DNA of 64,000 bases from an uncultured Gammaproteobacteria bacterium (lineage in GTDB: Bacteria > Patescibacteriota > Microgenomatia > Daviesbacterales > UBA10151), in contig CAZGFG010000001.1 of the NCBI GenBank assembly GCA_964524895.1, positions 54,936 to 118,935 on the forward strand, written 5' to 3'. Made by a program: the position numbers and the translations under genes. The notes beneath the pieces were generated by a model. That model was not told the DNA's origin. It was given only the letters and a program-made list of their open reading frames with translations, and made no database searches. Shown here one piece after another: positions 1-64,000 of the stretch (positions are counted from its first letter, which is position 1; each line of letters begins with the position of its first letter).

Positions 1-3000
1 GCTATATTCTCTGGGTTAAGATCTCTTTGTAAAAAAATTGGATCATTTAGAACACGTTTAACTTCTATGTTCCTGATAGTCAGCGAAGATTTTGCTCCTG
101 TAAGCTCATTCCTTGCAGGCAGTATAATCCTCAATTTGGCATTTTTTGTAACCGGATTAAGTGAAAGTGTTAAAAGATTCGGTATCCATTGATTAAATGC
201 GGTTGACTGAATATGAATACAACTATGCAAACTACAAAAGTCATCAGATGACTCATTCAATTCAGTATCTGAAGTAATTGCTACTGTAAATCCATTTACC
301 GAGTCGGATAGTACTTCAAACGAAATCTGATACGTACCACCTCCTCCAGCATGATCAATTGGCCAATCTATGTATGCTTCATTTCCTGAATCGATTAACT
401 TGATGACTCCGCGGTCTAGTATTTGGACATTTTTATTATCGGTAAAGCTTGCGACAGATAGTAAATTAGCTGATAGCAATTTGTTGTAACTTATTTCGTA
501 CTCACCTTTTTCTAACTCAAAATTATTTAATATCAGGACTTTGTCCTGAATTAAGATAGAGGAGGGAGAAACAGTTTTATTATTTAAACTCAAGTTCAAT
601 CCTTTTATCCAGTCCGGATAAATATTTTGGAAGCCCTGGTCAGCTATTAATACTTTATATTCCCCATCCAGTTTATTGGAAAAGACAGCAATATTTTTAC
701 TTAAAAGGGGGTCCTGTTCGGCTGGATAAAAGGCCGGTAGCAAATTGGCCTCTACCAGTTTAATCTTTAATTTTTCCGCAATTTTTATAGCCATTTCTTT
801 CTCTTTAATACTACCAGTTAAAGATTGATTATTAAGAAGTAACAAATGTATTTGAAACATCGTAATAAATTGATTTTTAAATTGCTCTATTGCATATAAA
901 TTTTTTACATCTTTTTTAAATAGATAACCTAAAAGACTTTCGTACTCTTTCAGTAAAACCAATCTTTGATTTTGTGTTTTAGGAGCAGGTTTATATATCT
1001 CTAATAATTTATCTGTTGTCTGTAAAAGCAAGGTAGTCGCTTGTTCGCTTTCAAAAATTCCAGTTTGGTACAAATAATTTTTTATATTGAGTAACTTGCC
1101 ATATATAGAGTCTGGAGGAAATTGATTTCTTAAGATATACCCTACTTGCGTTTCTAATTCGCTAGTAGAAATTTGTTTAAAATCCAATAATGCTCTTGGA
1201 AAAACTGTTATTTTTCTTATCTTCGAATGATCGATTTTGTCGATATCCTTTTCTAGCGGACTTAGGATGATGTCTTTATTACCAGTCAGATTCAACAAAT
1301 CTATACTGCTGGCAGCTCCGGGATAAATTATTTGGCCACTGTTTACCACCTCAATTTTCTGTCCCTGGTTTTCCGATAAACTATAGATCACCAATCTTCC
1401 AAAAGTAGCTTCTTTCTTTAAGAAGTCTAAATTATTCAATGTGTCTTCGATTAGTTGAGGGTTAACCAAGTTGGCATCAATCCCATAAGTGTCTTTATCT
1501 GTCCAAACTTCATCTTTATGCAAAACAATAAACCTTACATTTAAAATTTTTAGTAAATTCAATATCTGCTCACTTTCCAAGAAAGATGGATAAAAAATAT
1601 AAGCTAGATTCTTAAGAAATTTGTCTGCATCTTTTGATCCCAGATTTCTAGACAAAGAAGGTTGGTGTGTAAATAAGACATGATTCACATCAACACCATG
1701 GTAACCCCAATCCCATTGGTAAGTTACTACATCCCCACCGGAATAGGGTAAATGCAAAAGAGTGTCATCCTTACTTCCATGTTGTCCCAACCATTCATCA
1801 GCTTCTTTATAGTATTTAGGCACGGCCACTTGAAAGTTGTTTTCTTGGGTTCCAAACACCCTGCCAGTAAACATTGGCGAGTTATAGATAATAATAGCGA
1901 GTGACAACGCTCCCACCACCAACACCCAAGCTACGGCGGAACTTATATACCTGGAAGTTACTCTCACCAATGTTTGTAAACCAACCACAAACAAAATACT
2001 CCCAAAAAACGGCAAGATAATCCCTAATTTTTCGTAAGGATTTCTCACCACTCCCAGCAGGAAAAGGCTGGAGATACCCCAAATATAGGGAGCTGTGAAA
2101 GGACTGGCTGCCCCTTTGGCCAAAAGAACCGCTACCAGGTAATTAACGGCGCTGGGTAGCAGATTTTTACTCTTGAGAGAAATAATTAGTCCTGTAAGCA
2201 CCAGTGTCGACACAATGAGGGGAATCATCTGATAAGAAAAAGTCCGGTAAAGTTGTCCTAATTCTGCAGTAAATAAAAGATAATATGGGTTCACCCATTG
2301 AAGAGAATAAGGCAAGATAGTTTTACGACTGATATTTATTAAAGTTGTTAAATTTTCCTCGCTGCTATGTTGAGACGATAACAAAGCAGGGGCGGTGGTA
2401 AAAAGTGAATTAATCCACCAATAGTTTAATAATACCCAGAAGATTAATCCTATTACAAATCTCATTCCTACTTTAAATAAATAATTCTTACTCTGCCAAG
2501 GAAAAATAGCTTCGGAAACAGTAATCATCCCCAGCAGTAGCCACACGGTAATAATGGAGGCCAGGCTACCATACATATATAAGGCTGTAAAATTAAGCAG
2601 TAAAAACAAAATCAAAAGTTCGAGCTTTCCCAAAGAGATCCACTTCTTCCAAGATAAAGCCAAAAGCGGTAGAAAAGCCGCCAAAAAGATTCCGGTATAT
2701 AGAAATCGGTGCCAAACTTCCACCATCATATATGGATTAAACATATAGAAAAGGCCAGCTACTGTAGCAAGCCCCTTTTTATCCTTAAAAATTGTTAAAG
2801 AAAACATGTACATGCCAAACCCCATTAAAAAAAGCAGTAGAATAGAAATTAGGGCTTGGAGCAACATTGGAGATAAACCAAGGGTAGTTAGAAATGACAG
2901 AACTGCATATAAAGGATATGCAATAATAAAATGTGGCACGGGCATACCCGGTGCTACCGCATTCCACCAGATAAATTGTGAGATCTCTGCTAGTCGGTTC

Positions 3001-3146
3001 GTATTATATGTTATGAAGCCTACTTCTGCACCACCATATAGATTGCCAGTTCTGAACCAATTCATTACTAAATAAATGGATACAGCCAAAAATAAAAACA
3101 GTGGTATAAGGAAAGAAGATTTATAAAGAAATTGTAATCTAACCAT
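1..3146 (-). CDS. Large polytopic membrane protein, YfhO/GT-C-like putative glycosyltransferase; partial, 3' end runs off the window edge. Paralogue of 8039..11536 and 45281..47503.
   Basis: Hand translation of the reverse strand from the ATG at 3144..3146 gives MVRLQFLYKSSFLIPLFLFLAVSIYLVMNWFRTGNLYGGAEVGFITYN... and I checked about 400 nt without finding a stop. The ORF track reports no complete minus-strand ORF here, which fits an open frame that leaves the window. The N-terminus and an internal block (VPKYYKEADEWLGQHGSKDDTLLHLPYSGGDVVTYQWDWGYHGVDV) parallel the 1165 aa and 740 aa paralogues (VKVPNDYQQASRWL...GVTYNWEKGYAGVEL). Confidence 0.6.
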   Translation of the reverse strand, partial: MVRLQFLYKSSFLIPLFLFLAVSIYLVMNWFRTGNLYGGAEVGFITYNTNRLAEISQFIWWNAVAPGMPVPHFIIAYPLYAVLSFLTTLGLSPMLLQALISILLLFLMGFGMYMFSLTIFKDKKGLATVAGLFYMFNPYMMVEVWHRFLYTGIFLAAFLPLLALSWKKWISLGKLELLILFLLLNFTALYMYGSLASIITVWLLLGMITVSEAIFPWQSKNYLFKVGMRFVIGLIFWVLLNYWWINSLFTTAPALLSSQHSSEENLTTLINISRKTILPYSLQWVNPYYLLFTAELGQLYRTFSYQMIPLIVSTLVLTGLIISLKSKNLLPSAVNYLVAVLLAKGAASPFTAPYIWGISSLFLLGVVRNPYEKLGIILPFFGSILFVVGLQTLVRVTSRYISSAVAWVLVVGALSLAIIIYNSPMFTGRVFGTQENNFQVAVPKYYKEADEWLGQHGSKDDTLLHLPYSGGDVVTYQWDWGYHGVDVNHVLFTHQPSLSRNLGSKDADKFLKNLAYIFYPSFLESEQILNLLKILNVRFIVLHKDEVWTDKDTYGIDANLVNPQLIEDTLNNLDFLKKEATFGRLVIYSLSENQGQKIEVVNSGQIIYPGAASSIDLLNLTGNKDIILSPLEKDIDKIDHSKIRKITVFPRALLDFKQISTSELETQVGYILRNQFPPDSIYGKLLNIKNYLYQTGIFESEQATTLLLQTTDKLLEIYKPAPKTQNQRLVLLKEYESLLGYLFKKDVKNLYAIEQFKNQFITMFQIHLLLLNNQSLTGSIKEKEMAIKIAEKLKIKLVEANLLPAFYPAEQDPLLSKNIAVFSNKLDGEYKVLIADQGFQNIYPDWIKGLNLSLNNKTVSPSSILIQDKVLILNNFELEKGEYEISYNKLLSANLLSVASFTDNKNVQILDRGVIKLIDSGNEAYIDWPIDHAGGGGTYQISFEVLSDSVNGFTVAITSDTELNESSDDFCSLHSCIHIQSTAFNQWIPNLLTLSLNPVTKNAKLRIILPARNELTGAKSSLTIRNIEVKRVLNDPIFLQRDLNPENI

Positions 3147-3156
3147 TAAATTTATT

Positions 3157-5940
3157 TTACTTATGCCTTATTTTCAACCTGGGAAGAAATAATAAAATAA
3201 CAATTATGAGTAGACTGATTCCTGAAATGACTAACCCCCATTTAATCCATTTTTGAGGTGCAAATACCACTTCATATACACCATCTTTATCAATGTAAAA
3301 ACCGTTTAGCAAGCTGTATGTAGGTATCGAACTAATGCCGTTAATTTGCCAAAAGGGATGGTAAGCTTGAGAAAAAATTAGCATCACCGGGCTTGTAATC
3401 CCACGAACACTGGCCACATATTTAGTGGGATTTTCTTGGTAATAAGATACTGTCCCACCAGCATTTGCTACATTTCCCTCCTCATAGTTAATAATTCTAT
3501 TCGTTTCATACAGATGAGTTGCTTTGTTTAAATATGATCTCCAGGTATTTTTATCAATTGCTGCCACTGCGTTTATCACATTAATTTCTCCCTCGGTCTC
3601 TATAACTAAAGGCTGCAAAAAATCCATATTCCCAACCTCAAACCACTGGATGTTTGCTTTTTGATAATGGAATATCTGATCCGGTATTTGATTATTCCCT
3701 GTTAATTTAATATAGATAGTTTCAGGGTCAGCAATCTTGGTACTTATTTCCCCTATTTTTTGCCCATATTGGTAAAATTTTATACTACCACCTCTACTAC
3801 TTTGCATAGCTCGAACAAGTAAAACCCCCTTAGAGCCCTTTTGAATGTTAACAGTCAGTTTTTTGTTTCCTTCAGCTATTGCCCAACCTCCCCCAAGGTC
3901 AAAATCCTGGTTATCAATGCCGTATTTTGTTTGCAGAAAATCTCTCCACCACACTAAATCCGTAGTCTCTCTTTTCCACCAACCTGTTTCATTTGGGCTA
4001 TCTTGAAGAATTTTTGCCGGAAAGAAAATATCATTTTCATTAATAAAGCTTGCCGCAAGATCTTTCAAACTTTTGTTTCGAAGCAATATCTTAGCATTTG
4101 GAAATTCATCCAATTTCTTGCCTAAACCTATCTTTTCCTCCACGAAGACTAAAGCATTATCTGCTAGATTAAGTTCAATACTTCTAGTAAATTCATTGTA
4201 AACATCATCCGATCCTATTACCCACCATAAATTTGGAGCTATAAAAAATCTGTCTTGGTGTTTATTAACTTTAAACAGAGGAATTTGGGAATCATCAACT
4301 TTTGACAACCAGGGAAGTTGACTTAACTGACCCTGAAAATTGGCATAATACTCAATATTCTCCGACTTGAGGCTATCTCTTTTAATATCTAGAGGGGGAT
4401 AGCTGACATAGCCAATCCCTAAAACGTTAAATATCTCTCCCATAAATTTTGCTTCCCTAATAAAGTTTAATCTTTCATAAGTACCTACAGTACCCACAGC
4501 AAAAGGCCTTTTCTGCATTAGCCTTGTTCCCTCTAAAGCCGGATGTGTTGTATCCCAATAACCCAATGGGTTTTTAGTAGGAATCCAAAATACCCGCGAG
4601 AAGTTTTTATCCTGCGCCAATCTATTCTGAAGCCCATTATAAGCTTCACTACCTCTGGGGGTAGAGAAAGTTCCAGTCATAACCCCTAACCAAATCGGAC
4701 GAGCTAAAATAATAAAGTAGCTTGCAGTTAAAACTAATATATAGATTCTGAACCTGGATTTTTTTAGAGCGGATATAATCACCTCAACACTTACACCAAT
4801 TAATAAACTATAAGAAAGTACTGTGAGGAAATAAAATTTGGTGGAGTCCCGAAACAATGAAAAACCGGGAATGTTGTCAAATAGCCATGGATAAATCTTA
4901 GAAAAAGGATCCAGTGAGCCCTTGACCAAAAATAAAGAGAAGATTGCTACAATTAGCCAAAATCCCACCCACTTATTTTTCGACTTAAGTATAGGCGCCA
5001 AGAAGACCAGTATAGGTATACCTATAAACTCCCATTGCAAACCTGTAACACTCCCAAAAATATTCTTATACCAATGCGGAGACAGCAGCAATAATGCATG
5101 ACCAAGATTAGCAAAATTTTGTGACGAGTTTTTAGTCAAATATGAAAAAAGTTCATTCTCGACCGGAGCTTTCAACAATACAATTAGCCAATAAGAATTA
5201 AGCAGTAAAAAGAATGATGATATAACACTTCCTGCTTTTAACCACCTGAATAAGCTATTTTCCCTTAAAAAGACTACAGAATAGATAAAATAAGTTATTG
5301 TCAATAAAAACAATATATAAACAAATCTAATATCAAATACTCCCAAAACTGTTACACAGACTGCTGCAATTAACTGATCCACAAAACCTCTATTGATAGA
5401 CTTGACTATTAACAAAAAGCTAATTGGAAATATGGCAAATGCTAAGGCAATGGACAATTGTCCACCATCTATCAGTAGGAGTAGGTATGTATTGGTTAAG
5501 TAAAAAAGACTTGATATAAAGATTGCGGCATTAGAAAGCTTCAATTCATGACTTAATTTCCAAATGCCTGCCGTACTTAGGAAGAATACAGGTATTATCC
5601 ATAACACCCTCTCCAAAATTATAAATGGGAAACCTAAATTTGTCAGTAATCCCAAAATTAAATTAAAAGGCCAGGACCAAAGTGTAAAAACAGTATATTC
5701 ACCCATTCCCTCCACATCCCTTTCCATCCAAGTCTGCGGAATATTAAGTAAGGACTTTAGGAATGACTGCGGAACAAAAGGAAAGTCGCTAGCTACTTTG
5801 ATCTCGGGAATCCACCACTGCCAATAAACTAAAAGCCACAGTATTAATAAAATTAAAAAATACCTATTGCGCAGCATCAAGCTCCAGCTATAGTGCAGTA
5901 ACAACTTAAGTCTATCTTTCATGTCGATAGTATATTCCAA
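3157..5940 (-). CDS. 927 aa polytopic membrane protein with a large extracytoplasmic domain and a C-terminal TM anchor; YfhO-like GT-C putative glycosyltransferase.
   Basis: Long ORF with about 12 N-terminal hydrophobic segments, a block WSWPFNLILGLL resembling the YfhO 'PFNWLLVL' region, a ~450 aa hydrophilic domain, and a terminal hydrophobic helix (WGLVISGISLLIIVILLFL). The stop is 10 nt upstream of the next gene's start. Confidence 0.6.
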   Translation of the reverse strand: MEYTIDMKDRLKLLLHYSWSLMLRNRYFLILLILWLLVYWQWWIPEIKVASDFPFVPQSFLKSLLNIPQTWMERDVEGMGEYTVFTLWSWPFNLILGLLTNLGFPFIILERVLWIIPVFFLSTAGIWKLSHELKLSNAAIFISSLFYLTNTYLLLLIDGGQLSIALAFAIFPISFLLIVKSINRGFVDQLIAAVCVTVLGVFDIRFVYILFLLTITYFIYSVVFLRENSLFRWLKAGSVISSFFLLLNSYWLIVLLKAPVENELFSYLTKNSSQNFANLGHALLLLSPHWYKNIFGSVTGLQWEFIGIPILVFLAPILKSKNKWVGFWLIVAIFSLFLVKGSLDPFSKIYPWLFDNIPGFSLFRDSTKFYFLTVLSYSLLIGVSVEVIISALKKSRFRIYILVLTASYFIILARPIWLGVMTGTFSTPRGSEAYNGLQNRLAQDKNFSRVFWIPTKNPLGYWDTTHPALEGTRLMQKRPFAVGTVGTYERLNFIREAKFMGEIFNVLGIGYVSYPPLDIKRDSLKSENIEYYANFQGQLSQLPWLSKVDDSQIPLFKVNKHQDRFFIAPNLWWVIGSDDVYNEFTRSIELNLADNALVFVEEKIGLGKKLDEFPNAKILLRNKSLKDLAASFINENDIFFPAKILQDSPNETGWWKRETTDLVWWRDFLQTKYGIDNQDFDLGGGWAIAEGNKKLTVNIQKGSKGVLLVRAMQSSRGGSIKFYQYGQKIGEISTKIADPETIYIKLTGNNQIPDQIFHYQKANIQWFEVGNMDFLQPLVIETEGEINVINAVAAIDKNTWRSYLNKATHLYETNRIINYEEGNVANAGGTVSYYQENPTKYVASVRGITSPVMLIFSQAYHPFWQINGISSIPTYSLLNGFYIDKDGVYEVVFAPQKWIKWGLVISGISLLIIVILLFLPRLKIRHK

Positions 5941-6100: not shown

Positions 6101-6119
6101 AGCATTACTTGAAATATTA

Positions 6120-6125
6120 TATAAT
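6120..6125 (+). promoter_or_regulatory. Candidate -10 hexamer TATAAT for the 6151 gene.
   Basis: Perfect TATAAT 25 nt upstream of the ATG, with a weak TTCATA 18 nt further upstream. The region is AT-rich, so a chance match is plausible. Confidence 0.2.
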
Positions 6126-6150: not shown

Positions 6151-7656
6151 ATGAAGCATGTATCCCTTCTTTTCCTTTATGCTTATATTACGGTGTTGCT
6201 GTTTTATCAACCGGTGCTTTTTACATATTTTTCACAGGATGACTTTTTTCATTTCAAGGTTAGCCAAACAGATGGAAGCTTAACAGGCTTTCTAAACCTT
6301 TTCGGCGCTCATTCCTTTCAAGAAAGAGGTATCGCTTTTTACCGTCCCATTTCCAGAGAGTTCTTATACCACACTTTTTACAACCTCTTTGGTCTTAACC
6401 CTATTCCATTCCGCCTACTGCAACTTACACTCCTCGCTGTCAATATGACTCTAGTATATCTGTTAATGCAAAAAATCTTTAGTGCAAAAACTTTATCTAT
6501 ACTAACTGCTTTTTTCTTTGGTATTACAGCTAGCAATGTTGCTCCACTATTTTATCTAGCAGGAGGCGCACAGACTCTCATCGCCACTTCATTTATTCTG
6601 CTTTGTCTTATCTTGTACTTAGAATTTCTGAAATCTAAGATAAAAATATATTATTTTGCTTCATTTATCACATACATATTTGCCCTTGCTTCTCATGAAC
6701 TATCAGCAAGCCTACCAATTATTCTATTACTACTTAGTTTTTCCTTAGTTTCTAAGAAACAATATTTGCATGAAGCAGTCCGGTTATTACCCTTTTTCAT
6801 CATACTTTCCTTATATCTTTATATAGATATACACATCATCGGATTCTCAGATCAAGAAAAACAATACCAATTAAGCGTAGGGGTAAAGACATTTATGAAC
6901 TCACTTTCTTGGTACTTTGTCTGGGGACTTGGCATTCCAGAAATGTTAATAGATTTTGTTTTTCCGGGATTCAAATTAAACCCAGATTTAATGAAATACT
7001 GGGGGAACTATTTTAGGATTATCTTTTCTGCTTTTTTTATAGTACTAGCAACGATCGCTTTCTCACTTACTTATCTATTATGGACAAAGAAGGCATTACT
7101 GTTTGATAAAAAATTTCTATTTCTACTATTCTGGTTTCCAATCGCCATTTTTCCGGTAACCTTTCTACCATTGCACAAATCAAGCTACTATTTGGTTCCC
7201 GCTCTCCCCGCTCTGTGGGGAGGAGTTTGGTATCTAATTTTCAATACGTACCGATCAATTAAACTAAAACATCAAAGAGCGGCAAATCTCTTTTTTGTAA
7301 TCTCCTTTCTTAGTTTTCTAATATTGTCCTTTACATCTATTAAGCTAGGTGAAACAACTTATTGGGCAGCCACTAGAGGAAAACTAGCTGAAAAGTTAGT
7401 AAAGGAGGTTAAATTCGCTTATCCTATCCTTCCTAAAGGAGCTCTAATTTATTTTGTAAACGATCCCAGTTACCCTTATGTTGCCCAAGATTGGGGAGGG
7501 ACTTCAAAACAAGCAGCATTTGCTTTGAATGGTGAAGACGCATTAAAGCTCTTGTATAAAGATCCCACTTTAAAAGTTTACTATCAAGATTTAAATAACT
7601 TGCCTGATAATTCTCCGAAGGAAAAAGTATATACTTTAATAATCAGAATCTATTGA
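6151..7656 (+). CDS. GT-C superfamily membrane glycosyltransferase (ArnT/PMT-like, 501 aa).
   Basis: Polytopic N-terminal region with an acidic motif FSQDDFFHF right after the first TM, then a C-terminal soluble domain. This is the typical ArnT/PMT-type GT-C architecture. Confidence 0.6.
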   Translation: MKHVSLLFLYAYITVLLFYQPVLFTYFSQDDFFHFKVSQTDGSLTGFLNLFGAHSFQERGIAFYRPISREFLYHTFYNLFGLNPIPFRLLQLTLLAVNMTLVYLLMQKIFSAKTLSILTAFFFGITASNVAPLFYLAGGAQTLIATSFILLCLILYLEFLKSKIKIYYFASFITYIFALASHELSASLPIILLLLSFSLVSKKQYLHEAVRLLPFFIILSLYLYIDIHIIGFSDQEKQYQLSVGVKTFMNSLSWYFVWGLGIPEMLIDFVFPGFKLNPDLMKYWGNYFRIIFSAFFIVLATIAFSLTYLLWTKKALLFDKKFLFLLFWFPIAIFPVTFLPLHKSSYYLVPALPALWGGVWYLIFNTYRSIKLKHQRAANLFFVISFLSFLILSFTSIKLGETTYWAATRGKLAEKLVKEVKFAYPILPKGALIYFVNDPSYPYVAQDWGGTSKQAAFALNGEDALKLLYKDPTLKVYYQDLNNLPDNSPKEKVYTLIIRIY

Positions 7657-55192: not shown

Positions 55193-56365
55193 ATGAAGCT
55201 TTATAAGGATAAAACAAAAATATTAATGTTAACTCATTATGCATTTCGAGCGGAAGATGGTGAGGATACTGATCAACGTATCCTTCGATACCTAAAAGAG
55301 CGGGTTAGAAAAGTAGTTTTAATTACCCACCCATTTCCAGATTTTAATTATCGAACTTCCTATTGTACTATTTACGAAAATGGGAATCAGGTAAAGCAAA
55401 TAAAGGTGGCCATTGTGAAAGGACTTTCTGCTCTACAATACCTTCACCACGTCTTACTAATTTACTATTACCTCGTAAGGGTAGGTCTCTCGTATGACCT
55501 TTGTATCGCCCTAGAAAATATGTCATTTATGGTAATTTTACCTTTTCGTCTATTGGGTACTGTCAAAAGATTGGTTTACTACTCAATTGATTTTATGCCT
55601 CAAAGGTTTCCTAACCCTTTTATAAACTGGCTATATCACTTTATAGATAAACTGGCATGTAGACTTTCAGATATTAATTGGGTAATGGTTAAGGAGCAAA
55701 TAAACGAACGCAGAAAATATGGGGCGATCACAATTAAAAGTTCTGCATTTACAATTGTTCCAATCGGATATGAGACAAAAAATATTGATATAAAACCTTT
55801 AAATAAGATTGACTTTCATAATATTGTATACGCAGGTGGTTTCAGGGAATCAATGGGCCCACAACTAGTTATCAAAGCTATGCCTCACTTGATAACAAAA
55901 ATCCCAGATATTCGGTTAACTATTATCGGGTTAGGAAAAGATTTAAAAAAATTAAAATCATTAATAAAAGAATTAAAAGTTAGTCAACAGGTTGATTTTA
56001 AAGGGTTTATACCTGGTTTCAGGGATTTAACTCATGAGATATCTTTAAAAAGCATAGCTCTTGCTCCTTATGCACCTATACCGGGAAGTTATAGTTATTA
56101 TTCTGATCCAAGCAAGATAAAACTTTATATCTGCTGCGGGGTTCCAGTCATTACAACGAAAGTAACTACTATTTCAAATTTAATCTCAAAAACTCACTCT
56201 GGTATTATAATTGATTATTCAGAAAAGGCTCTGTATAAAGCAGTATTATTTTTACTTGCTTCTAAAAAAAGATTCCTTAATTATAAAAATGCCGCTATAG
56301 ATCTTTCCCACAAATTTGATATTAACCACATTATGGACAATGCTATTCAAAAAATCCCATTTTAA
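55193..56365 (+). CDS. Putative GT-B-fold glycosyltransferase (GT4-like), 390 aa.
   Basis: C-terminal pattern KIKLYICCGVPVITTKVTTISNLISKTHSGIIID resembles the GT4 donor-binding region. The N-terminal half is less diagnostic. Confidence 0.5.
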   Translation: MKLYKDKTKILMLTHYAFRAEDGEDTDQRILRYLKERVRKVVLITHPFPDFNYRTSYCTIYENGNQVKQIKVAIVKGLSALQYLHHVLLIYYYLVRVGLSYDLCIALENMSFMVILPFRLLGTVKRLVYYSIDFMPQRFPNPFINWLYHFIDKLACRLSDINWVMVKEQINERRKYGAITIKSSAFTIVPIGYETKNIDIKPLNKIDFHNIVYAGGFRESMGPQLVIKAMPHLITKIPDIRLTIIGLGKDLKKLKSLIKELKVSQQVDFKGFIPGFRDLTHEISLKSIALAPYAPIPGSYSYYSDPSKIKLYICCGVPVITTKVTTISNLISKTHSGIIIDYSEKALYKAVLFLLASKKRFLNYKNAAIDLSHKFDINHIMDNAIQKIPF

Positions 56366-56460: not shown

Positions 56461-57417
56461 ATGAGTAGAGGGAAAATGGAAGATAAATATTTAGTAACAG
56501 GGGCAACAGGTTTTGTGGGTTCATATATAGTCAGAAAGCTCGTAATGCAAGGGAAAAATGTTCATATATTAACAAAAGAAAAAAAACTAAACTGGCGATT
56601 ATCCGACCTTTCCTCAAAAATCCATGTACATGAAGCAGATCTTCTGGATAAAAAATTACTAGTTTTAGTAAAAAAAATTAAGCCTATTTATATATTTCAT
56701 TTTGCTGCCTCTGGATCTTTACCCAATGAAGAAGATATGGGTAACCTTATAGATGTAAACTTAAAGGGGACAATTAATCTCATAAGCGCTGTTAAACAAA
56801 ATAAATTTAAGCTGTTTATAAATACAGGAAGCTCCTCAGAATATGGAGTTAAAAAGGGATCGATGAAAGAAACAGATCTTCCTTTTCCGATTAACGACTA
56901 TGGTATAACGAAAACTGCTTCTACTCTTTATACTCATAAGGAGGCTATACGGAATAATTTACCCCTTATTACTTTTAGACTCTTCTCTGTTTATGGGCCT
57001 TATGAGCAGAAGACTCGCTTGATTCCAACTGTGATTCTATCAGCTCTAGCAAATAATCCTATTAATGTTTCTAGTCCTACTCATGTTAGAGACTTTGTAT
57101 ATATTGACGATGTTGCTGATGCTTACTTGTCAGCATGCAATGCAAGAATTATTCCGGGTGAAATTTTCAATATTGGGACAGGAAAACAACATAGTGTAGG
57201 AGAAGTTGTAAAAAGCATTCTTCAATTTTCCCAAAGTAAGTCAAGGGTAGCATGGGGTACGGTGAGAAAACAAAGCAGACAGATAGAGTCTGCAGACTGG
57301 CGGGCCGATACAAGAAAATCAGAAAAAATACTTGAATGGCAAGCTAAATATTCATTACATCAAGGTTTAAAGGAATCTTTGGTCTGGTTTAAAGAAAACG
57401 GTTTTCTATATGAATAA
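56461..57417 (+). CDS. NAD-dependent epimerase/dehydratase (extended SDR).
   Basis: YLVTGATGFVGSYI Rossmann motif and YGITKTASTL (YxxxK). 318 aa. Confidence 0.8.
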   Translation: MSRGKMEDKYLVTGATGFVGSYIVRKLVMQGKNVHILTKEKKLNWRLSDLSSKIHVHEADLLDKKLLVLVKKIKPIYIFHFAASGSLPNEEDMGNLIDVNLKGTINLISAVKQNKFKLFINTGSSSEYGVKKGSMKETDLPFPINDYGITKTASTLYTHKEAIRNNLPLITFRLFSVYGPYEQKTRLIPTVILSALANNPINVSSPTHVRDFVYIDDVADAYLSACNARIIPGEIFNIGTGKQHSVGEVVKSILQFSQSKSRVAWGTVRKQSRQIESADWRADTRKSEKILEWQAKYSLHQGLKESLVWFKENGFLYE

Positions 57418-58219
57418 AAACCTTTTACAACAACACGCTAAAAATATAAGACGGAATATAATAAAAATGGCATACAATGCACAGAGTGCTCATACTGGAG
57501 GATCCTTATCTTGCGTTGATCTTTTAACAGTTTTATATTTTTCTATTCTGAGGGTTACACCGCGTGCACCTCTAAATCCAAAGCAGGATAGATTTATATT
57601 CAGCAAAGCACACGATTGCAAGGCCTTATATGCAGTACTTGCTGAGAGAGGTTACTTTGATAAAAAGAAGCTTTTAACCTGTGAGTTAGACAGAGGTCTG
57701 CCTGGTCATTCAACAAGAAATGTAGTGCCTGGAGTAGAAAGCTCTGCCGGTTCGCTTGGACATGGCTTATCCCTTGCAGTTGGTATAGCCTATGCGAAAA
57801 AAATCGACCAAAATCCATATCGGGTATTTGCAATGCTTTCAGACGGAGAATGTGATGAAGGATCGACTTGGGAAGCGATACTCTTTGCTGGACACCACAA
57901 ATTGGATAATTTAATTGCTATCGTAGACTACAATAAATTACAAGCTTTTGGAAGAATTAGTGAAATTCTTACACTAGAACCTTTTATTGATAAATGGAAA
58001 GCATTTGGTTGGGAAGTAAAAGAGGTCAATGGACACAACCTTCAGAAGATCGAACAGGTCTTCAGAAAAATTCCCTTTAAAACAAATAGACCCTCTGTTC
58101 TAGTTGCACATACAATTAAAGGATACTTCGGGATAAAAAAGCATATCGATCAGGTTTCGTCTCAATATAAGCCACCAACGGAAGAAGAGTACAAACAAGC
58201 ACTGAACGATCTATCATGA
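57410..58219 (+). CDS. Transketolase, N-terminal (ThDP-binding) subunit of a split transketolase.
   Basis: GGSLSCVDLLTVLY, SKAHDCKALYAVLAERG, GSLGHGLSLAVGIAYA and GDGECDEGSTWEA are the transketolase N-terminal domain blocks. 269 aa. It overlaps the epimerase by 8 nt. Confidence 0.85.
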   Translation: MNKNLLQQHAKNIRRNIIKMAYNAQSAHTGGSLSCVDLLTVLYFSILRVTPRAPLNPKQDRFIFSKAHDCKALYAVLAERGYFDKKKLLTCELDRGLPGHSTRNVVPGVESSAGSLGHGLSLAVGIAYAKKIDQNPYRVFAMLSDGECDEGSTWEAILFAGHHKLDNLIAIVDYNKLQAFGRISEILTLEPFIDKWKAFGWEVKEVNGHNLQKIEQVFRKIPFKTNRPSVLVAHTIKGYFGIKKHIDQVSSQYKPPTEEEYKQALNDLS

Positions 58220-59130
58220 GAATTGCTTTCGTAAACACTCTATATAAGATAGCCAGTAAAAATCAGAAAATAATACTGATAACCGGAGATTTGGGTTTTT
58301 CTGTTTTTGAAGATTATACTTATAAACTTCCAAAACAGTATCTAAACGCAGGGGTTGCAGAACAGAATATGACTGGAATCGCCGCCGGGATGGCTATGGA
58401 AGGGAAAACTCCCTTTATATACTCTATCGTTCCTTTTGTAACAATGAGGAATTTTGAACAGATAAGAAATGATGTTTGTTTCCAAGGGTTAAATGTAAAA
58501 ATCGTAGGGGTAGGAAGTGGTTATTCATATGGGATCAATAGCTATACACACTACGGATTGGAGGATGTGGGCATCCTAAGAACCTTACCGGGGATTACAA
58601 TACTTTCTCCAGGTGATCCTATTGAAACCGAGCTCGCTACAATTGCTGCCAGTAAGATGAAGGGACCTGTATATTTGCGTTTAGGAAAAGCTGGTGAACC
58701 AAAAGTTCATAAAAAATATCCCAAGTTTGAGATCGGTAAAGGAATCGTTTTAAGAGACGGAAAAAATATAGCTCTGATTACTTCAGGTACCATGCTTCCT
58801 ATAGCTGCTCAAGTTGCGGATATGTTAAAAGACAAATTATCAGTTAAGCTTATAAGCATGCATACTATTAAACCTTTAGACATAGCCTTGATTAAGAAAA
58901 TATCAAATCAAGTAAAAGCAATCTTTACTCTTGAGGAACACACGATTGTTGGAGGGTTAGGATCTGCCATAGCTGAAGTTCTCTCAGAACAAGGCAAAGG
59001 GATAATTTTCAAGAGATTTGCCTCTCCTGACCGCTTTAATAAAATTGTTGGCAACCAGCAGTTTATGCGTGCACAAACCGGCCTCTCAACAGACCATATT
59101 GTAAAAGAGATTAAAGAAATAATGAAGTAA
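58216..59130 (+). CDS. Transketolase, C-terminal (pyrimidine-binding plus C-terminal domain) subunit.
   Basis: GDLGFSVFEDY...GVAEQNMTGIAAGMAMEGKTPF..., 304 aa, ATGA-overlapped with the N-terminal subunit. Confidence 0.85.
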   Translation: MRIAFVNTLYKIASKNQKIILITGDLGFSVFEDYTYKLPKQYLNAGVAEQNMTGIAAGMAMEGKTPFIYSIVPFVTMRNFEQIRNDVCFQGLNVKIVGVGSGYSYGINSYTHYGLEDVGILRTLPGITILSPGDPIETELATIAASKMKGPVYLRLGKAGEPKVHKKYPKFEIGKGIVLRDGKNIALITSGTMLPIAAQVADMLKDKLSVKLISMHTIKPLDIALIKKISNQVKAIFTLEEHTIVGGLGSAIAEVLSEQGKGIIFKRFASPDRFNKIVGNQQFMRAQTGLSTDHIVKEIKEIMK

Positions 59131-59131
59131 C

Positions 59132-59938
59132 TTACCTCTTATTTCTTAACTTAGAAAGTTTTTTTCTTCCTATAAACATAACAGCTGGACTAAAAAAGTA
59201 TGTTTCAAATCCTCTCTCCCCAAATAAAATTCTCAGTGTTGGATTGATTATATACTCCAAATAACAAACTATCTTTAATACAAAATACCTTATATTTTTT
59301 TTCTCCATGGGAAATCTAAACTTAAACGTTCCGTAATTTTTACAAAAAAGCGTTTGAATTTTGGATACATTACATACTTTTTCTAAAGCATCTTCATTCA
59401 TCAAATCCAGATTATGAAGTGGTATGAGATCAGGTCTTAAAATTTTTGCTTTTAATAAATTAAACCCTCTAAAGCGCGGAATTTGAATAATCATATAACC
59501 ACCAGGTTTTAATATGTCATAATGAATCTTAACAGCCTTCTCAGGAGGAATTATATGCTCAGCAAATCCATAGGAAAATACGACATCAAAGCAGTCTTTA
59601 TATTTTTTAAGAAACTGTTTATCGAAGGCGTCTTTGATTATCGTTTTAACCCCATTTTTGGAAGCTTCTTTTGCTGCCTCTTTGGAATACTCTACTCCGT
59701 AAGGTCGACAACCTAACATCTTGGCAAATTTTTTAAGTAGTTTTCCGTCACCGCTACCAATTTCACAGATTCTTGCTTTTTTATTTGAAAACCTGGGTAT
59801 GTATTTTTGTATTAAAACGTCACATAAAAAGATATCGTAAGAGCTAAAAATACCGACTTTTGGCCTTATATGAATTTTACGTTCTCCTGAATAATAGTCC
59901 TCCCAGACAGATTGTTTATATTTATTAGAAACCTTCAT
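59132..59938 (-). CDS. Class I SAM-dependent methyltransferase (268 aa).
   Basis: Motif I ICEIGSGDGKLL, motif II DVVFSYGFAEHI, and LKPGGYMII. Confidence 0.75.
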   Translation of the reverse strand: MKVSNKYKQSVWEDYYSGERKIHIRPKVGIFSSYDIFLCDVLIQKYIPRFSNKKARICEIGSGDGKLLKKFAKMLGCRPYGVEYSKEAAKEASKNGVKTIIKDAFDKQFLKKYKDCFDVVFSYGFAEHIIPPEKAVKIHYDILKPGGYMIIQIPRFRGFNLLKAKILRPDLIPLHNLDLMNEDALEKVCNVSKIQTLFCKNYGTFKFRFPMEKKNIRYFVLKIVCYLEYIINPTLRILFGERGFETYFFSPAVMFIGRKKLSKLRNKR

Positions 59939-59950: not shown

Positions 59951-60985
59951 CTAAACTCCTAATTTATCAAGCTCTTGGAAATAATTGTATTTTTTAACAG
60001 TCATTAATGTTTTCTCTCTTGTGCGAGAGATAATTATATCTCTCGCCTTTTTTATTACAAATCTAGGAAGGAATCCAGATAAACCAAAGATCAAAAAAAA
60101 TGGGTTACTAAGTAGAGAGGTATCTATCTTGACCATCCTTTTTAAAACTTCAGCATAATTTTTGTTATTTGAGAAAAATTTTATATTCGGTAAGAGAATT
60201 ATTATCCTTCGAACTAACTCCTTCTTGTATATATCATATTCCCGATCCGTAAAGATATTTCTAACTATGTCTATTTGTTCTTCCAAAAAAAAGGTACCAT
60301 AGTTTTTGATACTAAAGTAGGTCGGTATGTCACGAAGGCTCAAGTGTGCAACTATAAATAGATTAGGTATATAAACTATACCATGTTTTTTGATAACATC
60401 AAAGACGAGGGGAATATAGGAATGTCCCATGTGATTCACGATCCTACTTGTATCTATAAGGGAATTTTTAAGAACAAGACCTGTAGGAAATCCTAATCCA
60501 AAATTAAAGATCTTAAGCAATATGTCCTTTACTTTTTCTGGTTTTAAAATTACTTGTCTGTTACTTAAAGACGTTATTCGATAAGGAAATCTAGGTGAGG
60601 TATCATAAGCTATAGATCCGATTCTCCCAATCCCTACTTTTTTCTCCTTCATTACCTTTAATATTTCTAAAAGTGTGCGATCTCCTAAAATAAAGTCGTC
60701 ATCAGCTAAAATAAAAATATACTTCCCTGATGAATACTCTAAACATTTTTTAAGATTTAGTGCATAACCTAAATTCTGCTTATTCTTATAATATTTTATT
60801 CTCTTATCTTTGAAACATTTAACAACCTCTTCCGTATCATCTGTTGAACCATTATCGCTTATAATCACCTCTAATAAAATATTTTTCTGTCTTAAGGCAG
60901 AGTGCAGGGACAGTTTGAGGTAATTACTTCTATTAAAGGTTGGGATAACAATCGAAAAATCTATTTTTTTGGAAGATAGGATCAT
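59951..60985 (-). CDS. GT2 glycosyltransferase (GT-A fold).
   Basis: FSIVIPTFNRSNYL...EVIISDNGSTDDT and DDD. Confidence 0.8.
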   Translation of the reverse strand: MILSSKKIDFSIVIPTFNRSNYLKLSLHSALRQKNILLEVIISDNGSTDDTEEVVKCFKDKRIKYYKNKQNLGYALNLKKCLEYSSGKYIFILADDDFILGDRTLLEILKVMKEKKVGIGRIGSIAYDTSPRFPYRITSLSNRQVILKPEKVKDILLKIFNFGLGFPTGLVLKNSLIDTSRIVNHMGHSYIPLVFDVIKKHGIVYIPNLFIVAHLSLRDIPTYFSIKNYGTFFLEEQIDIVRNIFTDREYDIYKKELVRRIIILLPNIKFFSNNKNYAEVLKRMVKIDTSLLSNPFFLIFGLSGFLPRFVIKKARDIIISRTREKTLMTVKKYNYFQELDKLGV

Positions 60986-61063: not shown

Positions 61064-62164
61064 ATGCAAAAGAAAATATATTTCTTTATTGGTACTACAG
61101 CCGAGCTTATAAAAGTTGCTCCCGTTATAAAAGAACTTAAGGAAAGAAGGGTCGATTTTAAGGTAATCTCCTCTAATCAAAATGTTTTGTATTTTGAAGA
61201 ACTCAAACCCTTATTGGGAAAACAAACAGCTTACTACAAGAGCGTTCTCAAACCATTCAGTTTGCCTTCTAATAACGAATATTTCAGGTTTATATTCTGG
61301 GCCATTAAGACTTTAGGAAACTTTATTTTATATTTCAAAAAAGAACTTAAAGAAATCAGTAAAAATAATGTTTACTTAATAGTTCACGGAGATACGGTCT
61401 CTTCTTTAATTGGAGCTATTATCGCCAGATTACAGGGGATTAAACTTGTTCACATTGAAGCTGGATTAAGATCTTTTAATTTTTTTGAACCTTTCCCAGA
61501 AGAAATAAATAGATTTATAATCTCTCATCTGGCAGATGTTCATTTTTGCCCAAATACCTGGTCTGTGAAAAATTTAAACAAGGTCAAAGGTGTAAAGATC
61601 GATACTAAAAACAATACTTCAATAGAATCACTACAAGAAAGCTTGAGATACTCAAAGAAAATAAGATATGTCAACAAAAAATACTTCCTGCTAATACTAC
61701 ATCGACAGGAGCATGTTATGTACAAAAAACAAGAAGCGATCAAATATCTGAATTTCCTACTTGAGTGTGCTAGAGATGATTTAGTTTGTATTTTGGTTCT
61801 TCATAAACTAACCGAAAAGTTACTAAAAGTAGGGCATCTTAAAAATAGAGTAAGTAGAAATAAGAATGTTATTATAGTTCCAAGATTACCTTATATTAAA
61901 TTTACAAATCTGATGAGAGAAGCAGAATTTGTAGCTACAGATGGTGGTAGCAACCAAGAAGAATGCCATTATCTAGGAAAACCATGCTTAATACTCAGGA
62001 ATACATCTGAAAGAATAGAGGGAATAGGTGAAAATGCTGTGTTGTGTAAAGGAAATGAGAATATTTTAAAGGATTTTGTAGAAAACTATAGAAAGTATAA
62101 TAGAAAACCGGTAAGATTTGTGACAAGACCTTCTAAAATAATTGTTGATCACTTAATTAAATAG
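61064..62164 (+). CDS. UDP-N-acetylglucosamine 2-epimerase (WecB/NeuC family).
   Basis: IVHGDTVSSL, HIEAGLRSFN (H.EAGLR[ST]) and PEEINR motifs. 366 aa. Confidence 0.8.
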   Translation: MQKKIYFFIGTTAELIKVAPVIKELKERRVDFKVISSNQNVLYFEELKPLLGKQTAYYKSVLKPFSLPSNNEYFRFIFWAIKTLGNFILYFKKELKEISKNNVYLIVHGDTVSSLIGAIIARLQGIKLVHIEAGLRSFNFFEPFPEEINRFIISHLADVHFCPNTWSVKNLNKVKGVKIDTKNNTSIESLQESLRYSKKIRYVNKKYFLLILHRQEHVMYKKQEAIKYLNFLLECARDDLVCILVLHKLTEKLLKVGHLKNRVSRNKNVIIVPRLPYIKFTNLMREAEFVATDGGSNQEECHYLGKPCLILRNTSERIEGIGENAVLCKGNENILKDFVENYRKYNRKPVRFVTRPSKIIVDHLIK

Positions 62165-62165: not shown

Positions 62166-62993
62166 GTGAGATATTTATGCTTCAGATTTGATGTAGACAC
62201 TCATAAGTGCCTTAGGGATGGCGTACCAAATCTATTGAAACTATCAAACCGTCACCAAGTTAAATTCACTTTCTTTATCAATGTAGGTAAGACAGTAGAT
62301 AGACTACATTTCTTTCAGATTGAAGGTCGGCCACTAAAAGATAACATTAAGTTACTGTCCCCTCTTAAAAAATTAGGAGTTAAGGATTATATGTTAATAT
62401 CCTTTTTAAATCCTCTCATTGGTAAGAGTTATCCAGAAAAGATACGAATGATATATAGATATGGACATGAGATAGGATTACACGGAGGGAGGAATCATCA
62501 GGCCTGGTCTAATGAGGCAAAAACTTGGTCCTCTAAAAAGATAAGAGGAGAGTTAATATGGGGGATGAAAGTTTTAAAGGGAATTGATGATATTGATATA
62601 AAGGGATTTGCATCACCGGGTTGGAGTGGATCGGCAAAGATAAATCGTATTCTGCAAAAACTTGGTTTTTTATATGTTTCAGACAGTCATACGGATAAAG
62701 CATTAGAAAAAATCATACAAAAGGGTGGGCTCAGAGATATCCCTACCAACATTGCAGGTGAGCCAGGTGGAGTAGGTTATATTGAATACTGTAGGGCCTC
62801 CAATATGAATGACTCAAAAATTCTTGCTGATCTTAAGGAAAAAATAAATCAGCGAAAAAAATTATCAGTCGTTTACGATCATCCTTTTTATGCTGGGACC
62901 AAGGAGTTGGATTTAATAAATAAGATGATTAAACTTGCAAAAAGTATGAATGTGAGAATTTTGATGCTTAAGGATGTTTTAAATAAAATATGA
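62166..62993 (+). CDS. ArnD-like polysaccharide deacetylase-fold enzyme (CE4-like; 4-deoxy-4-formamido-sugar-phosphopolyprenol deformylase homologue).
   Basis: [35 protein letters not shown] parallels E. coli ArnD [49 protein letters not shown] parallels HEVGLHAWDHHAW, and GFASPGW parallels AAAGW. Confidence 0.7.
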   Translation: [275 protein letters not shown]

Positions 62994-63733
62994 GAACTTT
63001 ATGCATCTTCCGAAATTCATATGAGGCAAGGTATATTTCAAATATGTTAGACAAGACAAGTTTAGTTAATACTATCGTTATAGAAAAAGGGGTTAAAGCA
63101 AAAGGGGAAAAGCTAAAAAGGTTCTTTGAAAAGACCAATATTTTCCGTATTCCTCTTTTATTAATAGATATATTAGCCATCTATATTTATTCAAAGGTAA
63201 CAACGCTAGAGATGAGAAAAAAGTTGGGAGAATATGAATATCCTCTAGATAAAATAAAACTTACTGTTGATGATGCTAATGACAAAGTTTGTTTTGATTT
63301 CATTAAGAGACAGAAGCCACAAATAATCTTCATTTATGGTACCTCTATTCTAAAAAAAGAGTTCCTGGATAGGATTAAAGCGCCTATCCTAAATATCCAT
63401 AGCGGGATTCTCCCAAAATATCGGAATGTTCATTCCGATTTCTGGGCATTCCTAAATAAAGACTTTGATAACATCGGAGTTTCTATAATTTATCTAGATT
63501 CGGGTATTGATAGCGGTGATTTAGCTGTACAAAGAAGAATAAAATATTCAAAAAGTGATGGGTTAATTGATATAAAGATTAAAATCTTAACCTTGATACC
63601 AACTCTAGTTAAATTTACGCTAGGAAAAATAAGCGAGGGAAAACTACCTAGAAAAAAGCAAAATGAATTAAAAAAGGGAGTCTTTTATACCCCTCAATTA
63701 ACTGACCTTATTAAACTATATGTTCATGATTAA
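62990..63733 (+). CDS. Formyltransferase-family protein (sugar N-formyltransferase, ArnA-N/Fmt-like).
   Basis: LNIHSGILPKYRNVHSDFWAFLN parallels the ArnA formyltransferase region [23 protein letters not shown] and the Fmt 'HxSLLPxxRG' motif. It is ATGA-overlapped with the ArnD-like gene. Confidence 0.65.
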   Translation: MRTLCIFRNSYEARYISNMLDKTSLVNTIVIEKGVKAKGEKLKRFFEKTNIFRIPLLLIDILAIYIYSKVTTLEMRKKLGEYEYPLDKIKLTVDDANDKVCFDFIKRQKPQIIFIYGTSILKKEFLDRIKAPILNIHSGILPKYRNVHSDFWAFLNKDFDNIGVSIIYLDSGIDSGDLAVQRRIKYSKSDGLIDIKIKILTLIPTLVKFTLGKISEGKLPRKKQNELKKGVFYTPQLTDLIKLYVHD

Positions 63734-63783
63734 GTCTTTTATTTTTGTTGTTGGTAACCTTCGAATAGGATATACTTTAGCCT

Positions 63784-64000
63784 ATGGGTTCCTACAATTT
63801 TAAAATTACTAAAAAGAACGACTTTTATGAAATAGCAGACGCCGGCAGGAACATTTTAATTCTTGCTAAAAATTATTTATTTGGAGAAAACATAGAATGG
63901 GAGAAAGAAATAAAAATTTGCAACTATAATTCTGAGCCGATTAATAATTTAATTATTGGAGATAATGTTTTTATGGGACACAATACAACTATTATGGTCC
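63784..64000 (+). CDS. Partial (5' end only) putative hexapeptide-repeat acetyltransferase.
   Basis: ORF open to the window edge. The C-terminal visible residues IIGDNVFMGHNTTIMV look like the start of a left-handed beta-helix (IGxNVxIG). Confidence 0.35.
   Translation, partial: MGSYNFKITKKNDFYEIADAGRNILILAKNYLFGENIEWEKEIKICNYNSEPINNLIIGDNVFMGHNTTIMV

Follow-up and report, generated by a model that had tools for sequence, protein, structure and literature searches.

A glycosyltransferase-rich island of at least 85 kb in Candidatus Daviesbacteria as a candidate assembly line for a surface glycan built outside the cell

How would a cell assemble a surface glycan from a locus crowded with sugar-related genes in which no means of export can be recognised? 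We addressed this question for a 64,000-nucleotide stretch of contig CAZGFG010000001.1 (hereafter the window), which a preliminary description made from the sequence alone had read as a ~64-kb island of about 50 glycan genes, with at least 11 polytopic membrane transferases and no export machinery. Sequence comparison indicates that the window is the middle, or core, of a surface-glycan supercluster in Candidatus Daviesbacteria, an ultrasmall, uncultured groundwater organism of the Candidate Phyla Radiation (CPR; Patescibacteria). From homology and analogy with known systems we propose, at a probability of roughly one half, that the island encodes a hybrid assembly line, in which a lipid-linked primer would be made inside the cell, flipped, and then extended and decorated outside by glycosyltransferases of the GT-C fold using polyprenyl-phosphate sugars.

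We scanned every open reading frame (ORF) of the window against Pfam, with NCBIfam used to refine some assignments. The window holds 49 tightly packed ORFs (~97.6% coding), one of which runs off each end (g01 on the left and g49 on the right), and sugar-related Pfam families were matched by all of them except g04, g12, g38 and ten polytopic proteins; the described glycan content and its list of soluble enzymes are thus real. GC content, considered with regard to a foreign origin, is uniform throughout (0.31-0.38), gene orientation flips at least 20 times, and no tRNA genes were found in the 64 kb. The idea of a phase-variable diversity island was also considered, and the homopolymer and simple-sequence-repeat tracts sought in the window were not found. 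An NCBI contig assigned to Candidatus Daviesbacteria (JACQIZ010000008.1, assembly GCA_016198205.1) shows 0 mismatches to the window over positions 1-7545, and proteins identical to those of the window are encoded in independent Logan assemblies; the window is not an assembly artefact. Full-length g01 is a 100% match to HY386_02710 of GCA_016198205.1, and the CPR origin that had been raised as a possibility is thereby borne out. Groundwater samples in which the organism occurs include SRR12113430, SRR12113424, SRR12113422 and SRR4343435. The reverse-complemented end of the GCA_016198205.1 contig (locus L022) adds 10,340 bp to the left of the window, and on the right an independent assembly (locus L001) carries the island at least 10 kb further. 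Because it continues for at least 10.3 kb on one side and at least 10 kb on the other, the visible island spans at least 85 kb rather than ~64 kb, and with both flanks it counts at least 12 GT-C genes and ~16 Leloir glycosyltransferases.

Ten polytopic proteins of the window (g01, g02, g03, g05, g10, g24, g25, g26, g29 and g34) are GT-C candidates; the eleventh, g28, is an MBOAT protein, which lowers the earlier count by one. Pfam and NCBIfam searches of these ten with E-values up to 10 returned nothing above threshold, the only sub-threshold matches being to AftD and, once, to MmpA. All-versus-all BLAST split the candidates into two paralog groups, family A (g01, g02, g05 and g34; 740-1165 amino acids) and family B (g10, g24, g25 and g26; ~630 amino acids), to the second of which g29 and g03 were weakly related. 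Profile comparison with hhalign joined the g02 family to the g34 family over the full length (probability 99.9, E 5.5e-32), identified g29 as a full-length relative of family B (probability 100, E 1.3e-40) and aligned g03 with the N-terminal module of family B, including its DD motif (probability 95.2, E 2.6e-8). A single family comprising A and B was not supported (probability 0.8), and no relation was found between family B and the neighbouring PMT_2 protein (probability 0.3).

Hydropathy analysis gave 8-12 hydrophobic segments in all ten candidates, against the 7-13 transmembrane (TM) helices of the GT-C fold, and in every one of them K/R residues ahead of TM1 point to an N-in topology. Each also carries an acidic motif 8-15 residues after TM1, a hallmark of GT-C enzymes (PMC8035078): D50 (DDW) does not vary among 33 family B sequences, nor does E29 (AED/AEG) within family A. 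Structural models of g34 and g26 combine an N-terminal helical bundle with a C-terminal alpha/beta or beta domain and resemble solved GT-C structures. The family A model (g34) was closest by fold to AftD, at only 14% sequence identity, and reproduces in prediction its architecture, in which an N-terminal GT-C TM domain is followed by a large extracytoplasmic domain and the protein ends in a TM anchor. For family B (g26 model; pLDDT 91.2, pTM 0.90) the best fold matches were STT3B, Pmt2, Pmt4 and PglB; Foldseek gave the same GT-C picture more weakly, with transporters appearing only at a probability of at most 0.25. Searches of PDB sequences with the profiles of the two families returned nothing relevant. 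Judged by models, profile alignments and acidic motifs, the ten proteins are GT-C fold glycosyltransferases and putative users of polyprenyl-phosphate sugars. The label "GT-C/YfhO-like" given to them previously therefore holds in its first half; none of the ten matched YfhO.

Family A is tied to AftD by sequence as well. The AftD domain PF11847 (DUF3367) scored 17.0 bits in g34 and 14.2 bits in g01, below the gathering score of 26, and gave no match in g02 or g05; many homologs at 40-50% identity do carry it, and by this transitive membership family A is placed within the wider AftD/PF11847 family. Family B is, on sequence grounds, a real but small family: an exhaustive hidden Markov model (HMM) search of 1.84 billion cluster representatives (50% identity) returned 196 proteins at E<=1e-30, a number that rises to 377 at E<=1e-10, and the few plausibly labelled members are Daviesbacteria or other Patescibacteria. 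None of the 43 family B homologs found in a collection of 5.8 billion proteins carried a precomputed Pfam domain. A g29-like Daviesbacteria protein bears the UniRef name RgtA/B/C/D-like, a slight indication of kinship with the PMT_2/ArnT clan.

On the donor side, Pfam supported the earlier tally of five GT2 enzymes (g07, g09, g22, g32 and g45) and two GT4 enzymes of the GT-B fold (g11 and g40). Residues 21-320 of the 329 in g22 aligned with GtrB (5ekp; E 1.3e-62), followed by ArnC (2e-27) and DPMS (7e-12), as expected of a membrane-anchored GT-A enzyme of the GtrB/CsbB type, and by this homology g22 is the sole clear polyprenyl-phosphate sugar synthase among the five, where two had been claimed; g07 and g32 have TM helices after the GT-A domain and no specific structural relative. 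Two unrelated families of small membrane proteins (~105-115 amino acids, 3-4 TM helices) overlap the stops of AftD-like genes, represented by g04 at g05 and, at g01, by a 111-amino-acid protein with 4 TM helices in the left flank (window -336 to -671; L022 7882-8217), the latter overlapping by 4 nt. The order of a g07-like GT2, a large g05-like GT-C and a small g04-like TM protein recurs in Daviesbacteria, Woesebacteria and other Patescibacteria, and by analogy mirrors the three-component Gtr and CsbB-GtcA-YfhO layouts (PMC8035078; PMC11127046). Both small families could be flippases or GT-C subunits. Their assignment to the GtrA or SMR flippases was tried and found no Pfam or PDB support.

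A cassette of a GT2 with TM helices, a methyltransferase and an AftD-like GT-C is duplicated in the window, as g07-g06-g05(-g04) at 7735-13890 on the minus strand and as g32-g33-g34 at 43629-47503 on the plus strand, with identities of 40% for g05/g34, 36% for g06/g33 and 27% for g07/g32. A third methyltransferase paralog, g30, lies directly upstream of the GT-C gene g29. The duplication and the g30-g29 pairing suggest that each GT-C step goes together with a methylation, which may take place while the sugar is still lipid-linked.

The reported lack of export machinery holds inside the window, where Wzx, Wzy, Wzz and ABC families gave no Pfam match, and proved to be an effect of the window's edge: a Polysacc_synt/MOP flippase of Wzx type (424 amino acids, ~11 TM helices) lies 680 bp to the left, at window -680 to -1954, on the same strand as g02-g01. 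It scored 96 bits against PF01943 (cut-off 28.2) and 77.7 bits against PF13440, and its top NCBIfam matches were MOP flippase models. The left flank runs on the same strand, 3' of g01, through the 111-amino-acid protein, the flippase, a GT2, a methyltransferase, a GT2, a GT4, a GT2, a PMT_2 GT-C, a 465-amino-acid polytopic protein and two GT4 genes. Comparison of synteny, which the preliminary description had called for, showed that the flippase locus is kept in four relatives (L010, L011, L012 and L014), where a Polysacc_synt protein of 422-433 amino acids follows the g01/g02 homologs and a protein of ~113 amino acids; the order GT2, g05, g04, g01/g02, small TM protein, flippase, GT2 is retained as a block in all four. 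The flippase and the adjoining run of Leloir glycosyltransferases suggest that a lipid-linked primer or oligosaccharide would be made inside the cell and then flipped. Since GacK, also a Wzx-type flippase, has been proposed to flip C55-P-monosaccharide donors (PMC8035078), the flippase of the island could by analogy carry either a lipid-linked primer or oligosaccharide or monosaccharide donors, and so serve either route.

The same regions were searched for the other components of a polysaccharide export locus. Wzy_C and Wzz gave no match in the window, the flanks or the related loci, Wzy being hard to detect by sequence; ABC_tran and ABC2_membrane gave none in the same set, and no ORF of the window or of loci L001 and L010-L021 contained Walker A and LSGGQ together. 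For an initiating phosphoglycosyltransferase, neither Bac_transf nor Glycos_transf_4 was matched over ~85 kb, and a crude motif scan was also negative. An exporter immediately outside the window had been named as grounds for a conventional O-antigen or capsule locus. A flippase is indeed there, but its presence does not turn the region into a conventional O-antigen locus, because no phosphoglycosyltransferase, Wzy, Wzz or ABC component was found in ~85 kb and the at least 12 GT-C genes far exceed what such a locus has. The 465-amino-acid polytopic protein of the left flank (L022 14863-16260; window -7317 to -8714), which lies 3' of the PMT_2 GT-C gene, was matched by neither Pfam nor PDB; it may be one more GT-C or a polymerase resembling Wzy.

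Read together, homology and gene order, on which all steps of the pathway are based, outline the following route. Cytoplasmic enzymes would make unusual activated sugars, by a CDP-hexose route and as uronic acid, ManNAc, a NeuB product and amino sugars, and methyl, carbamoyl, formyl or acyl groups would be added to some of these. Soluble enzymes of the GT2 and GT4 families would build the lipid-linked primer or oligosaccharide, which the Wzx-type MOP flippase would take across the membrane. Meanwhile g22, of GtrB type, and probably also the TM-bearing g07 and g32, would load single sugars onto polyprenyl phosphate. On the outer face, at least 12 GT-C enzymes (AftD-like and family B) would extend, branch and decorate the polymer, each presumably forming one linkage, and the MBOAT/AlgX-like pair would O-acylate it there. 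The acceptor may be a wall polysaccharide, a lipoglycan or a protein. The previous suggestion that GT-C enzymes add sugars outside from polyprenyl-phosphate donors is thus supported as far as homology goes.

The soluble enzymes fit a varied sugar chemistry. The set for sugar nucleotides comprises a nucleotidyltransferase, six short-chain dehydrogenases/reductases (SDRs; epimerase, dehydratase or reductase), a UDP-sugar dehydrogenase, a UDP-GlcNAc 2-epimerase, a DegT aminotransferase and NeuB. The methyl, acyl, carbamoyl and formyl modification enzymes listed earlier were all matched by Pfam in the window: two NodU-type carbamoyltransferases, a formyltransferase, seven methyltransferase domains, an MBOAT adjoining an AlgX/DHHW-like protein and the start of a hexapeptide acyltransferase, alongside a polysaccharide-deacetylase-family protein. 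The last of these, g47, adjoins the formyltransferase g48 and has ArnD as its top NCBIfam match (E 1.7e-25, full length), at 89.9 bits and so below the 382-bit cut-off; g47, g48, the DegT aminotransferase, the UDP-sugar dehydrogenase and the SDRs would be counterparts of the Arn pathway at family level. The DltB-like MBOAT g28 and the anchored AlgX-like g27 form a predicted extracytoplasmic acylation pair.

Comparison with known systems placed the island closest in logic to those that build or decorate glycans outside the membrane, among them the multi-component transmembrane glycosylation of Gram-positive bacteria. Mycobacterial and corynebacterial arabinogalactan and lipoarabinomannan (LAM) are made by many GT-C paralogs (EmbA/B/C, AftA-D and mannosyltransferases), presumed to form one linkage each, outside and on a flipped primer, and four proteins of the window and one from the right flank are related to AftD in both structure and sequence. 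Unlike those systems, whose donors are decaprenyl-P-arabinose or polyprenyl-P-mannose, the window and flanks hold no DPPR synthase (UbiA-type) and no DprE1 or DprE2, so that nothing marks arabinofuranose as the donor; the host belongs to the CPR, the genes stand in one cluster rather than scattered, and identity to AftD is low. With the Gtr, CsbB-GtcA-YfhO and GacI-GacK-GacL systems the island shares a GtrB homolog (g22), GT-Cs, the GT2/GT-C/small TM order and a nearby Wzx-type flippase, but it has no GtrA/GtcA, SMR or YfhO match, and its at least 12 GT-Cs against one per Gtr-type system probably mean construction of a backbone rather than a single decoration. The Arn pathway (Ugd, ArnA, ArnB, ArnC, ArnD and ArnT), which transfers L-Ara4N to lipid A, has a family-level counterpart here for every soluble step (g37, SDR decarboxylase-type enzymes, g23, g48, g22 and g47) and GT-Cs too, whereas the matches do not reach equivalog cut-offs (for ArnD, 90 bits where 382 are required), ArnE/F went unmatched and the arn-operon arrangement is absent. 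In the GT136 three-component pentofuranose systems (Kelly et al. 2024, PMC11127046) sugars are likewise added outside, by a GT-C whose extracytoplasmic domain binds carbohydrate, and a small 4-TM protein flips the polyprenyl-P-sugar, a point on which the island may be likened to them; it differs in that no PRPP-dependent polyprenyl-phosphoribose synthase was found in it and its small TM proteins have no similarity to EmrE/ArnE. Wzx/Wzy O-antigen and capsule loci share the nucleotide-sugar genes, the Leloir glycosyltransferases and a PST/MOP flippase, but the island lacks a detected Wzy_C, Wzz/PCP or initiating phosphoglycosyltransferase, and its GT-C content has no counterpart there.

Several points weigh against a single assembly line. 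The case for it rests wholly on homology and predicted structures; the ~85 kb contain no initiating phosphoglycosyltransferase, polymerase, ligase or acceptor gene; only one GT2, g22, is demonstrably of GtrB type; the candidate donor flippases, g04 and the 111-amino-acid protein, match no GtrA, SMR or PDB family; and a polysaccharide acceptor is an assumption, since the GT-Cs nearest in fold to family B (STT3, PglB and PMT) act on proteins. The island could also encode several independent pathways rather than one, for example for a wall polysaccharide, for a teichoic-like or lipoglycan polymer and for the glycosylation of proteins, and every pathway would then have its own GT2/GT-C module. Such co-location would account for the repeated cassettes (g07-g06-g05-g04 and g32-g33-g34), the tandem paralogs g24-g26, the frequent switches of orientation (at least 20), the several unrelated sugar-precursor routes and the shuffling of modules in related genomes; it sits poorly with a single MOP flippase, with the lack of a second initiation or export set in ~85 kb and with a core order kept as a block in four related genomes, and we regard it as unlikely, although the most credible of the alternatives.

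Somewhat less credible is a conventional Wzx/Wzy repeat-unit locus whose GT-Cs add optional side chains after polymerisation, in the manner of Gtr, GacL or GT136-type enzymes. The Wzx-type flippase and the run of cytoplasmic GT2/GT4 genes adjoining the window would suit it, the 465-amino-acid polytopic protein could be its Wzy, and three-component side-chain systems are widespread (PMC11127046; PMC8035078). Yet Wzy_C, Wzz and an initiating phosphoglycosyltransferase went unmatched in window, flanks and related loci alike, at least 12 GT-C genes beside ~16 Leloir glycosyltransferases are far above the needs of decoration, and the AftD-like proteins are large (740-1165 amino acids), with substantial extracytoplasmic domains like the arabinan-branching enzyme AftD. 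The fold matches of family B to STT3B, Pmt2, Pmt4 and PglB, the PMT_2 protein of the left flank and the reported richness of CPR genomes in surface proteins (PMC11665869) would instead make the GT-Cs PMT-like or OST-like transferases acting on S-layer, pilin or other surface proteins. We give this account the least credence, considering that the invariant residues of family B include no WWDYG-like motif, that family A is nearest to the polysaccharide enzyme AftD, that the region has no candidate acceptor protein gene and that pairs of the MBOAT/AlgX kind typically O-acylate polysaccharides or teichoic acids.

Beyond the genes that bear on the hybrid assembly line, several features of the island deserve mention (Table 1). 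The run from 19845 to 29485 (g13, g14, NeuB g15, then g16-g21 with a cyclase, an FGGY kinase, an HAD phosphatase, a thiamine pyrophosphate (TPP) enzyme and two SDRs) could, we presume, make a branched-chain or carbocyclic sugar by YerE-like chemistry. An NAD synthase, g38 (51649-53304), lies inside the island beside the UDP-sugar dehydrogenase g37 and could be a housekeeping gene that has strayed there or an amidotransferase that was recruited. The right flank (L001) continues with the hexapeptide acyltransferase, a thiolase, a 3-hydroxyacyl-CoA dehydrogenase, a DegT aminotransferase, a GT2, an AftD-like GT-C (PF11847, 41.2 bits), a GT4, an epimerase and a GT2; the placement of the thiolase and the dehydrogenase between the acyltransferase and the aminotransferase (L001 10795-15522; window ~63784-68511) suggests an N-(3-hydroxybutyryl) amino sugar. 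Independent assemblies break inside GT-C paralogs, JACQIZ010000008.1 at window 7545 (g03) and Logan SRR12113430_3648 at ~35018 (g25), which may reflect strain-level variation or repeat-like paralogy at those genes.

Table 1. Predicted genes of the 64,000-nucleotide window, with positions, strand, assignment and its basis (SAM, S-adenosylmethionine; NDP, nucleoside diphosphate).
Gene	Position	Strand	Assignment	Basis
g01	1..3146	-	AftD-like GT-C, family A; 3' end beyond window; full length 1161 aa; acidic motif after TM1	blastp to g05, g34
g02	3157..5940	-	Divergent family A GT-C, 927 aa, C-terminal TM anchor	hhalign to g34 family
g03	6151..7656	+	Probable GT-C, 501 aa, N-terminal module akin to family B	hhalign; no Pfam match
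g04	7735..8055	-	Small conserved 3-4 TM protein; overlaps g05 stop by 17 nt; candidate flippase or GT-C partner	
g05	8039..11536	-	AftD-like GT-C, 1165 aa	40% identity to g34 over ~600 aa
g06	11544..12176	-	SAM methyltransferase, paralog of g30 and g33	
g07	12187..13890	-	GT2 + 2 TM helices + methyltransferase fusion; probable lipid-linked sugar synthase; adjoins g05 homolog in relatives	
g08	13887..14834	-	RmlD-like NDP-sugar reductase	Pfam
g09	14834..15574	-	Soluble GT2	
g10	15567..17498	-	Family B GT-C	
g11	17595..18773	-	GT4 (GT-B)	Pfam
g12	18774..19664	-	296-aa protein without family match	
g13	19845..20624	+	Glucose-1-phosphate cytidylyltransferase-like	TIGR02623, E 1.3e-78
g14	20625..21587	+	NDP-sugar dehydratase/epimerase	Pfam
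g15	21590..22819	-	NeuB-family nonulosonic acid synthase	Pfam, NCBIfam
g16	22894..23979	+	AroB-related sugar-phosphate cyclase	TIGR04425, E 4e-105
g17	23989..25419	+	FGGY sugar kinase	Pfam, NCBIfam
g18	25416..26075	+	HAD phosphatase	Pfam
g19	26131..27960	+	Acetolactate-synthase-like TPP enzyme	Pfam, NCBIfam
g20	27948..28826	+	NAD epimerase/dehydratase	Pfam
g21	28823..29485	+	Short-chain dehydrogenase	Pfam
g22	29463..30452	+	GtrB/ArnC-type polyprenyl-phosphate glycosyltransferase: GT2 + 2 C-terminal TM helices	
g23	30436..31656	+	DegT/ArnB-type sugar aminotransferase	Pfam
g24	31671..33590	-	Family B GT-C	
g25	33617..35494	-	Family B GT-C	
g26	35561..37438	-	Family B GT-C (modelled member)	
g27	37445..38836	-	Membrane-anchored AlgX/DHHW SGNH-like O-acyltransferase partner	
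g28	38840..40249	-	MBOAT, DltB/AlgI-like	DltB E 3.5e-25
g29	40236..41876	-	Divergent family B GT-C	hhalign
g30	41845..42474	-	SAM methyltransferase	
g31	42493..43500	-	NDP-sugar epimerase/dehydratase	Pfam
g32	43629..44651	+	GT2, TM helix after catalytic domain	
g33	44652..45275	+	SAM methyltransferase	
g34	45281..47503	+	AftD-like GT-C (modelled member)	
g35	47682..49487	-	NodU/CmcH-type carbamoyltransferase	Pfam
g36	49590..50216	+	Methyltransferase (Methyltransf_24, weak match)	
g37	50206..51606	-	UDP-glucose/GDP-mannose dehydrogenase	Pfam
g38	51649..53304	-	Glutamine-dependent NAD synthase (CN_hydrolase + NAD_synthase), probably housekeeping	
g39	53312..55051	-	Carbamoyltransferase	Pfam
g40	55193..56365	+	GT4 (GT-B)	Pfam
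g41	56461..57417	+	NDP-sugar epimerase/dehydratase	Pfam
g42/g43	57410..59130	+	Split transketolase-like pair	Pfam
g44	59132..59938	-	SAM methyltransferase	Pfam
g45	59951..60985	-	Soluble GT2	
g46	61064..62164	+	WecB-like UDP-GlcNAc 2-epimerase	Pfam, NCBIfam
g47	62166..62993	+	ArnD-like deformylase/deacetylase (polysaccharide-deacetylase family)	
g48	62990..63733	+	Formyltransferase	Pfam
g49	63784..64000	+	5' part of 289-aa hexapeptide acyltransferase	

The island is not confined to this genome. A second Daviesbacteria genome (L010/L019; JACPKL010000005.1, 136-206 kb, tags HYW41_02025 to HYW41_02200) carries genes of the AftD-like kind and of family B, scattered along at least 70 kb of a single 279.5-kb contig, and very large islands seem typical of the lineage. 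Three contigs labelled uncultured Gammaproteobacteria (L011, CAZFYQ010000005.1; L016/L020, CAZYBP010000001.1; L017, CAYLXC010000002.1) hold the same Daviesbacteria-type island, with homologs of g05, g01, g03 and g02 at 37-52% identity, and their labels are probably wrong.

Our literature search found no paper on GT-C enzymes in CPR/Patescibacteria and none describing the features of the island; a recent overview of the CPR field makes no mention of surface glycans (PMC11665869), and AftD homologs have been reported across Actinobacteria (bioRxiv 10.1101/2019.12.22.885152). The novelty lies in the packing of at least 12 GT-C genes into a single island of a minimal genome, in the occurrence of AftD-like enzymes in CPR and so outside Actinobacteria, in a GT-C family missed by current HMM libraries (family B), and in conserved small membrane proteins coupled to GT-C genes. 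The mechanism extends known logic and is not a new principle, the enzymology being of a known kind.

CPR/Patescibacteria make up a large share of bacterial diversity, many of them living attached to host cells, with genomes generally of ~1 Mb, of which an island of this size would take roughly 8%. We put forward, tentatively, the broader possibility that Microgenomates-type CPR (Daviesbacteria, Woesebacteria) spend roughly 8% of their genome on a complex heteropolysaccharide or lipoglycan built mainly outside the cell by at least a dozen GT-Cs, in functional parallel to mycobacterial arabinogalactan/LAM; family B might then merit a new CAZy family, and the two small membrane protein families translationally coupled to AftD-like genes could be a new lipid-linked-sugar flippase or GT-C subunit. 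The island supplies testable parts, namely a clear GtrB homolog, AftD-like enzymes, a divergent GT-C family and two small membrane protein families in flippase-like positions. That several genomes of Daviesbacteria, Woesebacteria and other Patescibacteria retain the island is an argument that these minimal cells invest heavily in an elaborate glycan assembled outside the membrane, and that this glycan is therefore probably central to the envelope or to contact with the host.

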